In this document: one piece after another, positions 13,262 through 27,179 of the stretch
How positions within the stretch are numbered: position 1 is the first letter of the stretch
Layout: every line of letters starts with the position of its first letter
Source of the DNA: Candidatus Nanohaloarchaea archaeon
GTDB lineage: Archaea; Nanohalarchaeota; Nanosalinia; Nanosalinales; Nanosalinaceae
NCBI GenBank assembly: GCA_047617745.1
Contig: JBLGBN010000005.1
Coordinates: forward strand, 1-36,590
DNA: 36,590 nt
Reading direction: 5' to 3'
Notes under the pieces: model-generated
What the model was told of the DNA's origin: nothing
Database searches by the model: none
What the model saw: the letters and a program-made list of their open reading frames with translations, nothing else
Translations under genes and position numbers: made by a program

Positions 13262-14557
13262 GTGATAGTTTTGAAACCTTCAGAATCTAAAGCTGCAGCG
13301 TTCCTTGCATTGTTCTTGTCAATTATAATGATTGCGGGGATGTCGGTCGCGATAGTCGGTGGCGACGCCGACAACGAAGGCGATACAGGATCTGGAGGCT
13401 CTGACTATCCTTCTGGTGGCGACGCTGATAATGAAGGCGATACTAACGATGGTACGGACGGTTCTGATTCCGGCTCTACCGGAGATTCAGGTAGCGACGG
13501 CTCCACAGACGATTCTACAGATGATTCAACGGATAGCCCTACAGGCGGTGACGCCGATAATGAAGGTGACACCGGTTCAGGAGATACTGATTCTCCTACA
13601 GGTGGAGACGCTGATAATGAAGGTGATACTAACGACGGAACAGCCGATGATGGAACCGACGGCACGGATGATGGAACAGGTGGTGACGGTACAACTGATG
13701 AGCCTGATGACGGCGGTACCACTGACCCGGGTGACGGCGATGATAATACTACAGATCCTGGTGACGGAACCGATCCTGGCGATGGAGACGATGGCAATCA
13801 AACCGACCCTGGCGATGGGGATGACGGGAATCAGACAGATCCTGGAGATGGTGATACAGATGATGGAGGGACAGATACTCCGACTCAGTCTGATGGAGGT
13901 TCCGGCGGCCGCTGGTTAATACCTGGAGTTGACTTCACAGTCGAGTACCTAGATGTATCCCTGAATCCGGACAGAGTAAATACTGGTGAAGAGTTCCGTG
14001 TAGAAGGGGAAGTTGGAACCCTTGACAGAGAGCAGGTCGATATATACATTGATGGCCAGCATGTAGACCAGTTCGGCACTTACGGAGAGTTCAGCAGAAC
14101 TTTCACAGCTGGAGAACCTGGCTACGAAACTGTAAGAGTTGAAACAGATTTCGACTCCCAGGAACTCCTTCTCAGAGTTGACGGGGAAGAGGTTCCGCCG
14201 ACTCAAGCAGAAGACGAACTGGAGATCACATCAGTTGGTTATCCGGTACATGTAAGTCCGGGTGAAAACTTCGAGATATGCGTTGAAACAGAAGGAGGAA
14301 CGACTCCTAGCATAACTCTGAGCAAGAGCGGTCAGCAAGTAGCACAGAGAACCGCAAGATCGACCTGCTTCGAGCAGTCTGTAGAGGAGGGTATTCACGG
14401 CTTCACTGTGGGAGCAGAATCGGCTGATGGAAGTGACTCCCGATCGTTTACAATCAGGTCAGGTCAAGAGCTCACTTCAAGAATCTCTCAGAAAGTGCCG
14501 GGATCCAACATGGGAATTTTCGAGAGAATAGGTAAAGCGATCGCAATCTATGTATAA
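13262..14557 (+). CDS. Secreted/surface protein with 4x GGDADNEGDT and DPGDGD repeats and C-terminal Ig-like domains
   Basis: Signal-like hydrophobic N-terminus, D/G/T low-complexity region, beta-rich C-terminal half; start may be TTG 13271 after AGGTGA. Confidence 0.8.
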   Translation: MIVLKPSESKAAAFLALFLSIIMIAGMSVAIVGGDADNEGDTGSGGSDYPSGGDADNEGDTNDGTDGSDSGSTGDSGSDGSTDDSTDDSTDSPTGGDADNEGDTGSGDTDSPTGGDADNEGDTNDGTADDGTDGTDDGTGGDGTTDEPDDGGTTDPGDGDDNTTDPGDGTDPGDGDDGNQTDPGDGDDGNQTDPGDGDTDDGGTDTPTQSDGGSGGRWLIPGVDFTVEYLDVSLNPDRVNTGEEFRVEGEVGTLDREQVDIYIDGQHVDQFGTYGEFSRTFTAGEPGYETVRVETDFDSQELLLRVDGEEVPPTQAEDELEITSVGYPVHVSPGENFEICVETEGGTTPSITLSKSGQQVAQRTARSTCFEQSVEEGIHGFTVGAESADGSDSRSFTIRSGQELTSRISQKVPGSNMGIFERIGKAIAIYV

Positions 14558-25331: not shown

Positions 25332-25802
25332 ATGTCGGAAGAACATCCGTTTGTCGATGAGGAGGCCAGGAAAACCTCGACCATTGTAACCAAAAACTCT
25401 ATAGCTATTCCCAGGGATACTCAGAAGTTCAAGAAGAGCGAGCGGGCGTGGAACTGGGAGAAAATAGTTGATTTATTCTTCCCACATGAGCAGTCGCCTA
25501 AAAGGAACAAGTACGCCAAGATATTTCTACGGGAACTGAAAGACGAAGGTGAGATAGACTCTGAAAAACTGAACAGTTTCGATAAGTGGGGACATGAGAA
25601 GGGCAAGTCCAACCTGAAGAACAATATTCTTCCCAAGCTGAGGCGTCTAGGTGTTATAAAGTACGAATACCTGGAGTACAGAGGGAATAATGAGGGGGAG
25701 AAAGGCAGGAGAAAGCTGATTAAGCCGGCGAAGTCTTTCACTTCGACTCTGGATTCTATGGCGAATGGCTGGGCTGCTTACGAGTCAGCTGCCTCTGAAT
25801 AA
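25332..25802 (+). CDS. Lys/Arg-rich hypothetical protein, possible winged-helix nucleic-acid binder
   Basis: NLKNNILPKLRRLGVIKY..GRRKLIKP resembles a wHTH recognition helix and wing. Confidence 0.7.
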   Translation: MSEEHPFVDEEARKTSTIVTKNSIAIPRDTQKFKKSERAWNWEKIVDLFFPHEQSPKRNKYAKIFLRELKDEGEIDSEKLNSFDKWGHEKGKSNLKNNILPKLRRLGVIKYEYLEYRGNNEGEKGRRKLIKPAKSFTSTLDSMANGWAAYESAASE

Positions 25803-25812
25803 AAAAGAGAAA
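25801..25812 (-). terminator. Pyrimidine/T-rich terminator
   Basis: Minus strand TTTCTCTTTTTT directly after a three-helix domain. Confidence 0.6.
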
Positions 25813-25924
25813 GAGGAGGTTGACAGGACGCGAGTATTATTTGTTGTCCTGTTGCCGGAGGTGTGGAAAAGCACTAGGTCTGGCGGTAAAGATAATATAA
25901 AGTTCTCCGGCGTTTGCTCCTCTT

Positions 25925-26050
25925 CTAAAGTGCTGTTGCGGTTAAGACCGTTGCTTCCGGGCTGAGCTCTGTCTGTGGTCGGCTGTTTCTCTCTTCCTGT
26001 GCCTGAAGCTCGGCTTCGAAGTCTCGTGTGTTTGCGTTAATTGTTGACAC
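25925..26050 (-). CDS. Possible 41-aa acidic peptide inside the candidate RNA (MSTINANTRDFEAELQAQEERNSRPQTELSPEATVLTATAL)
   Basis: Read manually, GTG 26050 to TAG 25925; Glu-rich like the host proteome. Confidence 0.4.
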   Translation of the reverse strand: MSTINANTRDFEAELQAQEERNSRPQTELSPEATVLTATAL

Positions 26051-26408
26051 CTGGCTTGTTTGATCCTGGGTTGATCTCGTCTGAGTATATGTTCCGGAGG
26101 ATGACCATCACCTTGCAAGCGATAGCCATCCTCTTGGATTTCCCCTACGGCGTGGAGATGGCAGGTATGTGGAAATCCTGTCCAGTTGTGGTCTTGTGTT
26201 TTCGCGGTCGGCTCGAGACTGGCTCCAATTTGGGAGCCAAGGCGTCATTCCGCTTCACTCTGCCAGAATGCCAATATTATAGAACTTGGTAAACTTAGCC
26301 TTGGCCCTGTTGCAGCTATAGCTCACGGGCATCATATGCATACCGGTGAACCAGGATGTGTTTGCTAGGGCCATTTTTGACTTTCAACCGATAATTGGGG
26401 TCAGAGTC

Positions 26409-26424
26409 TTATAAATATTTCTAT
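26409..26424 (-). promoter_or_regulatory. BRE/TATA promoter for the candidate RNA
   Basis: Minus strand ATAGAAATATTTATAA immediately after the exonuclease stop codon. Confidence 0.65.
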
Positions 26425-27179
26425 TAACCCTGGATGTGTGGCCGGTAGAAACGGCTTTCCAGCCTCTGATGAACTATTTTAGCCAGTTCCTGGAGGTTAC
26501 GGGCATCGTAGCCGTTGTACTCAACCAGTTTGTCTAGAGCGTTCTCGTCGTTCTTGTTCTCGTACTTCTTCCATAGCCTTACAGCTTCTCTTCCGTCAAC
26601 ATCCTCTAGGTCTCTGTCGATCCCGATCTGTTTCTCTATCTTCTTCAAACCGCCTGAAAGCCCGATTCTTTTGCAGGGGTACATCAGATCGAGATGTGGT
26701 GTTTCGATTTCCATGCTGAAGTTGTGTTCCAGAAACGGTTGATCAAATTTTTTGCCGTTGAATGTTACCAGCATGCTTGAGTTGGAGATTTCTCTCTGGA
26801 TATTTTCTTTAGTCAGATTGTCGCCTCTAACCAGGGTTTTTGTCTCGCCGGCTCTGTGGAATGCGATAGTTGTTACTTTGTTTCTCTGTTTGTCCAGTCC
26901 GGTTGTCTCGATGTCAAAGAAACAGGCGTTCTCCTCAAAGTTTCTATATGCTCTCCAGAGGCTTTTGTTCGGCAGTTTATCGCCGAAAAAGTAGCTGTTA
27001 CCGACCTCTAGGTTCTTCCGGGCTTTCTCAAGAAACGACTCAACTGTTTCGCGTCTGGAATCTCCTATGACATCTGCCTGAGAAACATGGTCCCAGTGGG
27101 TGACATCGTTTTTCCATAACTTTTGCTCGGTTTTTTCCCCGATTCCTGGTGCGAGAATGAAACTGTTCTCCAACTTCAT
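26424..27179 (-). CDS. YprB-like RNase H-fold (DEDD) 3'-5' exonuclease
   Basis: N-terminal HhH-like PGIGEKTE; FFDIETTG, TFNGKKFD, GGLKKIE, YNGYD. Confidence 0.9.
   Translation of the reverse strand: MKLENSFILAPGIGEKTEQKLWKNDVTHWDHVSQADVIGDSRRETVESFLEKARKNLEVGNSYFFGDKLPNKSLWRAYRNFEENACFFDIETTGLDKQRNKVTTIAFHRAGETKTLVRGDNLTKENIQREISNSSMLVTFNGKKFDQPFLEHNFSMEIETPHLDLMYPCKRIGLSGGLKKIEKQIGIDRDLEDVDGREAVRLWKKYENKNDENALDKLVEYNGYDARNLQELAKIVHQRLESRFYRPHIQG

Follow-up and report, generated by a model that had tools for sequence, protein, structure and literature searches.

In the bacterial attenuators, i.e., trpL and hisL and the stalling leaders tnaC and ermCL, a short leader ORF overlaps mutually exclusive helices upstream of the regulated gene. 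K-turn riboswitches and T-box leaders are cis-regulatory, multi-helix RNAs in which a K-turn is located upstream of the Shine-Dalgarno (SD) sequence. L7Ae is reported to repress mRNAs via K-turns in their leaders and coding regions (PMC5539422), including autoregulation through the 5' UTR of l7ae itself (PMC5539422; PMC6298567). The locus that we describe shares with this last system an mRNA K-turn that is predicted to be L7Ae-dependent and is placed to affect translation. However, in comparison with those L7Ae-regulated mRNAs, its K-turn comes after the stop codon of a leader ORF that is predicted to be translated, ~200 nt ahead of the start of the next ORF; it is set inside a larger covarying RNA, and the target is a 38-aa orphan and not L7Ae or an sRNP protein. 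The locus resembles the bacterial attenuators in having a leader ORF that overlaps mutually exclusive helices, but it is archaeal, we found in it neither sensing codons nor a hairpin-U terminator, it carries at the stop codon what by its sequence would be a protein-binding type of K-turn, and its target is a micro-gene. Unlike K-turn riboswitches and T-box leaders, it has no Rfam match, T-box bulge or specifier loop, and no metabolic gene is found downstream; a T-box or known riboswitch was rejected, since there was no Rfam match and no T-box or aptamer core in the alignment.

The window, i.e., the whole stretch of 36,590 nt that was analysed, is contig JBLGBN010000005.1 (GCA_047617745.1), contig C5 of an archaeal assembly (834 kb, 89% complete), and all coordinates are positions in it. 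Genome size, acidic proteins and the DPANN distribution of a neighbouring gene suggest a Nanohaloarchaeota-like lineage. The element is encoded on the minus strand, flanked on one side by the gene of an RNase_H_2 nuclease and on the other by a convergent gene for an orphan of 156 aa, and has the following features:

26424..27179, minus strand: RNase_H_2 (YprB-like) nuclease gene (Pfam PF13482, E 1.6e-43)
26409..26415, minus strand: TATA box TTTATAA, seen in the sequence
26255..26374, minus strand: ORF-A, 39 codons, near-leaderless (MALANTSW...ILAE), from coding signatures and homologs
26302..26373, minus strand: helix that buries the ORF-A start (arms 26373-26367/26308-26302), from complementarity and homologs
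26235..26306, minus strand: alternative helix of ORF-A codons 26306-26298 with the K-turn strand 26243-26235, from homologs
26204..26253, minus strand: K-turn domain, present in 62/62 homologs
26253-26250/26207-26204, minus strand: C stem of the K-turn, with AAU bulge, tandem GA/GA and NC pairs
26239-26233/26226-26220, minus strand: capping hairpin of the K-turn, from complementarity
26136..26178, minus strand: P2 stem with pyrimidine-rich loop, of variable length (8 bp in the window)
26097..26133, minus strand: P3, a 15–16-bp hairpin with a conserved G-U near its UGCAA loop
26096-26092, minus strand: CCGGA directly after P3, seen in the sequence
26048..26052, minus strand: SD sequence AGGUG, 6 nt upstream of an AUU start
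25925..26041, minus strand: ORF-B, 38-codon orphan peptide with AUU start (ANTRDFEAEL...TATAL), from coding signatures and homologs
25801..25924, minus strand: 3' trailer with a three-way junction and U-tract, lineage-specific (fold z -4.16)
25332..25802, plus strand: convergent gene of a 156-aa winged-helix-like protein, a constant neighbour
26302-26308/26367-26373, 26236-26243/26298-26305, 26246-26252/26264-26270, 26220-26226/26233-26239, 26136-26143/26171-26178, 26020-26026/26214-26220, 25811-25818/25917-25924, 25823-25829/25846-25852 and 25854-25860/25905-25911, minus strand: nine helices proposed by the initial annotation in addition to a 16-bp hairpin, all fully complementary

Homologs of the element were found by DNA search in 19/24 genomes of the same family, and a covariance model gave one copy in 44/49, the same 44 that have the convergent winged-helix gene. 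The five genomes without a match are 68–85% complete, and the cassette was present in every genome of the family that is at least 90% complete. With the addition of 52 metagenome loci, and after dropping six matches truncated at contig ends, we obtained 76 distinct elements. ORF-A was called automatically in 68 of them, and removal of 95% near-duplicates left the 62 host-family homologs to which the counts out of 62 refer (kin among them are not independent). The genome G039, classed in another family, has a locus of the host-family type on contig C114 (L005) and another of its own type on contig C8 (L119); the former contig may be misbinned. No relative was found in the viral contigs searched, and no description of the element was found in a literature search limited to largely open-access papers without their supplementary motif and small-protein tables. 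The element is real, conserved and, in the literature searched, apparently undescribed.

The initial annotation had taken the region as a large non-coding RNA of ~590 nt with no credible long ORF, with its own promoter and with an elaborate secondary structure. The TATA box was confirmed, TTTATAA at 26415-26409 defining a predicted minus-strand transcription unit, and a TATA-like box is found 28–41 nt upstream of the ORF-A AUG in 68/76 distinct homologs; at one locus (L020), where the upstream neighbour is an inserted, unrelated gene, the element has kept its TATA. By the spacing typical of archaea, transcription would start near 26385. Against the absence of ORFs, two conserved small ORFs occupy ~240 of the 590 nt. 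ORF-A was intact in 73/74 homologs with complete upstream sequence (two of the 76 loci are cut off upstream), the exception being the frameshifted L093. Locus extraction demanded a stop 1–3 nt before the K-turn, and therefore the independent result is the in-frame upstream AUG in those 73 of 74. The dN/dS values were 0.41 for ORF-A and 0.19 for ORF-B (55 sequence pairs), compared to 0.87–2.1 for the shifted sense frames, and the other two sense frames of ORF-A were open in 0 and 1 of the 62 homologs. On this comparative evidence both ORF-A and ORF-B evolve as coding sequence, and ORF-A is a conserved and presumably translated leader. Since its dN/dS is 0.41 within the family, the ORF-A peptide may also act itself. 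No residue dominates in it (Ala 10.8%, Asn 10.2%, Met 5.2%) and it contains no run of sensing codons. A third frame from the AUG at 26248, inside the K-turn, varies from 3 to 106 codons without a fixed frame and was rejected as a gene, and splicing of ORF-A to ORF-B was ruled out on layout, each ORF having its own start and stop.

Much of the structural description did hold. The minus strand folds above chance (z -3.66, vs. +0.31 for the plus strand), the 16-bp hairpin at 26097-26133 was confirmed with its four G-U pairs and UGCAA loop, and homologs support both a conserved, covarying structure and alternative folds. Of the nine helices, 26246-26252/26264-26270 cannot coexist with the conserved K-turn, a motif that the initial annotation overlooked. 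The 3' end fared less well. The U-tract (25801-25812) is there in the sequence and a U-rich tract follows ORF-B in 17/62 homologs. The 3' three-way junction can form in the window, but only 3/62 homologs have room for it (at least 115 nt), and outside the genus its arms are seen at just one further locus. Pairing of the two ends (GGUUGA/UCAACC) is likewise possible in the window, but UCAACC follows ORF-B in 1/62, and therefore this pairing is local. Both copies of the repeat AGCCGACC are present, but a second GCCGACC copy in ORF-B was found in 1/62. The conserved structured part is thus ORF-A plus the ~200-nt spacer and not all of the 590 nt. As the initial annotation supposed in calling it novel, the element has no meaningful Rfam match, with nothing at gathering thresholds and otherwise only matches of E 0.9 or worse (best C/D match, E 6). 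Nor is the element RNase P or SRP RNA, both of which were located on other contigs, with no match at the element. For SRP RNA (RF01857) the match is on contig C7 with 121.6 bits, and for RNase P RNA (RF00373) the best match of the genome, on contig C1, has an E of 3e-10 and is below the cut-off. The probable RNase P RNA at G000 contig C1:15898-16309 (L027) is 412 nt long, exceeding the model length, and scores 39 bits against the Rfam cut-off of 84, with the conserved motifs recognisable. A purely non-coding RNA of ~590 nt would explain the strand-specific folding, the promoter and the covariation. It is nevertheless largely refuted by the coding evidence and we consider it scarcely credible: there is coding selection on both ORFs, with purifying selection on the two peptides and frame-preserving indels (multiples of three in 20/22 cases in ORF-A vs. 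38/258 in the spacer), ORF-B is unstructured (median z -0.4) and neither the 3' domain nor the end pairing is conserved. The architecture is very probably that of an mRNA with two ORFs and a K-turn module.

The spacer between ORF-A and ORF-B (~210 nt) is structured, and the window copy alone folds at z -4.89. In 31 sampled of the 62 homologs the median z was -3.3 for the spacer and -0.8 for its antisense, compared to the value already given for ORF-B. The order along it is K-turn, A-rich linker, variable P2 and P3. A canonical K-turn begins 1 nt after the ORF-A stop in 62/62 homologs, with GAU (54) or AAU (8) as its bulge, and the NC pair 26242/26212 alternates between C-G (45) and U-A (17), exceeding all nulls. 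Among 24 sequences both stems were 100% paired, with double-sided changes. Genome-wide the pattern occurs at just 2 sites, and only the one described here follows a stop. A box C/D or H/ACA guide RNA, which would have guide regions between box pairs or, beneath the K-turn, a pseudouridylation pocket with a lower stem, was rejected, the K-turn enclosing only a paired hairpin and being itself followed by the A-rich linker. P2-like stems appear in many homolog folds, the alignment being poor in that region. In P3, 11/15 pairs change on both sides with 92.9% of the cells paired, and six of the seven strongest covarying pairs belong to it. Of the 21 named pairs in the 24 sequences, 94.9% were paired and 14 had double-sided changes, a result matched by 0/500 shuffles in a test that is inflated by the relatedness of the sequences. 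In a tree-aware test of all positions against all, the top seven pairs all belonged to P3 or the K-turn but only two beat every null, and none of the long-range pairs reached significance. Downstream of P3 the linker is rich in A and C and poor in G (12%), and a UUUU run follows P3 in 17/62.

The genome encodes an L7Ae gene. According to PMC6298567, a G:C at -1b:-1n is rare and prevents ion-induced folding of a K-turn, which L7Ae can still fold, whereas C at 3b favours ion-induced folding. The -1b:-1n pair is G:C in 62/62 homologs, so that the sequence predicts folding by protein only; C at 3b, found in 19/62, points in the opposite direction. A ribonucleoprotein, as previously suggested, is therefore plausible with L7Ae as the protein, but it would be formed on an mRNA.

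Two mutually exclusive helices overlap the leader ORF, in the host family only. The helix that buries the ORF-A start reaches at least 7 bp in 59/62 homologs, vs. 12.0 expected under synonymous recoding, and the own partner is better than that of a distant homolog in 44/60. The alternative helix pairs the K-turn NC strand with the Lys-Ala-Lys codons of ORF-A, the same codons that pair with the ORF-A start; it excludes the NC stem of the K-turn and overlaps the start-codon helix. It reaches at least 8 bp in 47/62, vs. 10.2 under synonymous recoding, 0.7 in shuffled sequences and 1 with ORF-B, and the own partner was better in 52/60. It was not found in 8/62, and by eye none was seen in other families. 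In the models the two states are near-isoenergetic, lying at medians of 4.0 and 4.6 kcal/mol over the ensemble, and the alternative is the favoured one in 27/54 cases. Compared to the K-turn state, the alternative state exposes the ORF-A start more in 35/54 cases and less in 7/54. The modelled accessibility of the SD barely shifts between states (medians 0.20–0.27), being more open in the K-turn state in 9/54 and less open in 14/54. No cognate advantage was found for pairings of ORF-A or P2 with the post-P3 region, nor for those of the K-turn strand or P2 with the SD (in the P2-SD case, 34/62), and a bacterial-type scan found no hairpin-U terminator.

ORF-B is preceded by a true SD, complementary to GAUCACCUCC at the 3' end of the 16S rRNA (contig C1). 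The start codons in the 76 elements were AUG (56), AUC (9), AUU (7) and AUA (4), and 17 of the 20 near-cognate ones are exactly 6 nt from the SD, the AUG starts being 6–13 nt away; in L007 the frame is closed by a stop five codons upstream, so that no AUG, GUG or UUG is available. Loss of aIF1 as the cause of the near-cognate starts was rejected, since SUI1 was found in 36/41 genomes, although it gave no match in the present assembly, which is 89% complete; two copies in tandem are found at G017:C1:780976-781481. ORF-B belongs to no Pfam or NCBIfam family and had no usable match in the ESM Atlas. A protein search with the ORF-B alignment gave 22 matches, none with a Pfam domain or informative name, and the 12 examined all belonged to the ORF-B peptide family. 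Several genomes encode, at other loci, paralogous peptides of 32–47 aa that share the N-terminal motif of ORF-B (L095–L109; e.g., G012:C3:16116, G008:C14:20945 and G020:C1:988751), some with near-cognate starts, with none clear in this assembly. Several adjoin winged-helix regulators and some are just downstream of a second winged-helix family. The K-turn leader was absent from 12/12 paralogs checked, and therefore a single copy would have acquired the leader as its control module.

The winged-helix gene is convergent with the element in 76/76 and its product is 75–90% identical across the host family. Its model (pLDDT 72) gave weak fold matches, nearly all to winged helices and none with E of 0.001 or lower. 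It has no Pfam family, the ESM Atlas returned only hypothetical archaeal clusters, and distant homologs are found in Altiarchaeota, Micrarchaeota and Woesearchaeota. In the first two groups the gene often neighbours KaiC-like ATPases and that second winged-helix family, and among the 80 loci kept out of 204 the ORF-B profile had no match. On the other side, the nuclease gene lies directly upstream of the element in 65/76, and in the window a histone gene lies upstream of the nuclease gene. Pilin-like genes recur beside the winged-helix gene (L011, L015, L020, L091 and L092; one confirmed as Pilin_N), and elsewhere in the window (13262-14557) there is a secreted-looking protein with repeated acidic units of the GGDADNEGDT and DPGDG types.

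The host-family covariance model misses known copies in the families f3 and f4 and is therefore unfit to test other phyla. The layout, i.e., promoter, ORF-A, K-turn, SD and ORF-B, was found in 6/8 f4 genomes and in one f3 (3 of 10 f3 genomes examined). ORF-A has there 25–32 codons and its stop lies within the K-turn C stem or at most ~2 nt before it in 7/7 K-turn-bearing loci, all with G:C at -1b:-1n (7/7). The spacer is ~140–175 nt, the f4 copies carry a P3-like hairpin, and a winged-helix homolog is convergent in those loci whose output was readable. The ORF-B of f3/f4 always starts with AUG, begins M-C-x-x-C and is homologous to that of the host family (hhalign 94.7%), whereas the ORF-A peptides are not detectably homologous (hhalign 2.65%). 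In these loci the position of ORF-A is conserved more than its product, as in regulatory leaders. At two f3 loci ORF-B and the winged-helix gene are present but the K-turn leader is missing, and the single f5 genome has neither ORF-B nor K-turn beside the winged-helix gene. A UAGCGC motif recurs in f3/f4 spacers, also in those without K-turn (L111, L112, L119, L280 and L281).

We give about an even chance to the reading that this is a small mRNA with a built-in leader switch, coupled to L7Ae and to the ribosome, that would control ORF-B. In its favour are the coding signatures, the K-turn placed at the ORF-A stop in the host family and in f3/f4 although the ORF-A peptides differ, the G:C at -1b:-1n together with an L7Ae gene in the genome, the excess of both competing helices over synonymous recoding, the similar energies of the two states with their effect on the ORF-A start, the 6-nt SD distance of most near-cognate starts and the paralogs without leader. 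Against it are the P2-SD pairing and SD accessibility, the small number of pairs above every null, the homologs and families without the alternative helix, the C at 3b, the two f3 loci without leader, a possible role of the ORF-A peptide itself and the frameshift in L093. Several other explanations account for part of the data. The K-turn, P2 and P3 could be a trans-acting L7Ae ribonucleoprotein, stable or excised, in a dual-function RNA with the peptides as co-expressed products. The fixed length and conserved tip of P3 despite heavy covariation go beyond the needs of a simple switch, the models show no cis effect on the SD of ORF-B, and there is one copy per genome in 44/49, yet we consider this unlikely: the K-turn is fixed to the ORF-A stop and competes with pairing inside ORF-A, which makes sense in cis only, and the spacer shrinks to about 140–175 nt in f3/f4. 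It is perhaps a little harder still to believe in an element without conditional switching, in which P3 and an L7Ae-bound K-turn would protect the ends of separate ORF-A and ORF-B messages, or define them, and so set the ratio of the two. The nuclease gene directly upstream in 65/76 and the G-poor linker after P3 would fit such a stability or processing role, but the conserved helices that compete at the start of ORF-A are left unexplained and UUUU follows P3 in just 17/62.

The tags of tmRNA, a structured RNA with a short ORF, resemble ORF-B in having Ala-Asn near the start and a hydrophobic end. A tmRNA-, IRES- or bypass-like device, by which ribosomes would reach ORF-B other than by normal initiation, with ORF-B as a tag ending in a hydrophobic degron, would account for the invariant Ala-Asn after two codons, the hydrophobic C-terminus and the non-AUG starts (20/76). 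However, unlike tmRNA the element has no ARAGORN call and no tRNA-like domain was seen in it, SmpB was found in 0/41 genomes, and initiation is anchored by the SD, with AUG in all of f3/f4. In addition, AUU and Ala-Asn are one codon further apart in L053, and therefore the start follows the SD and not a resume codon, and paralogs without the RNA encode the same N-terminus. We regard this explanation as very improbable.

In the switch reading, the K-turn would need L7Ae to fold. With L7Ae bound, the K-turn strand would be locked and the ORF-A start codon buried; in its absence, this strand would pair into ORF-A and open the start. A ribosome completing ORF-A would have to unwind the C stem of the K-turn, and therefore the leader would read both free L7Ae and ribosome traffic. 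Its state might then set the output of ORF-B, the putative effector, through P2/P3 or through coupled termination or decay, an output that would be kept low by the near-cognate start in about a quarter of the members. What the element resembles in its workings is a leader attenuator joined to L7Ae control, and it is filed as a member of neither class because sensing codons are absent, anti-SD pairing (34/62) goes with no consistent shift of the SD, and L7Ae binding is putative. From gene context, the likeliest partner of ORF-B is the winged-helix neighbour. That the K-turn switch at the stop codon sets the level of a small protein, with CxxC in its ancestral form, and that this protein in turn modulates a conserved winged-helix regulator in a histone gene neighbourhood, is a tentative and rather doubtful extension.

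What the element adds is a new motif of structured RNA, two families of unannotated peptides, and AUU, AUC and AUA as natural start codons in an archaeon. If it is indeed such a switch, L7Ae would act not only as a repressor at 5' UTRs but also as the partner of a sensor in a leader ORF. Little regulation is left in these reduced genomes, and even so the cassette has been retained, with a layout that spans three families. If true, the extension to the winged-helix regulator would mean that translational capacity is coupled to transcription in a lineage of nano-sized symbionts.
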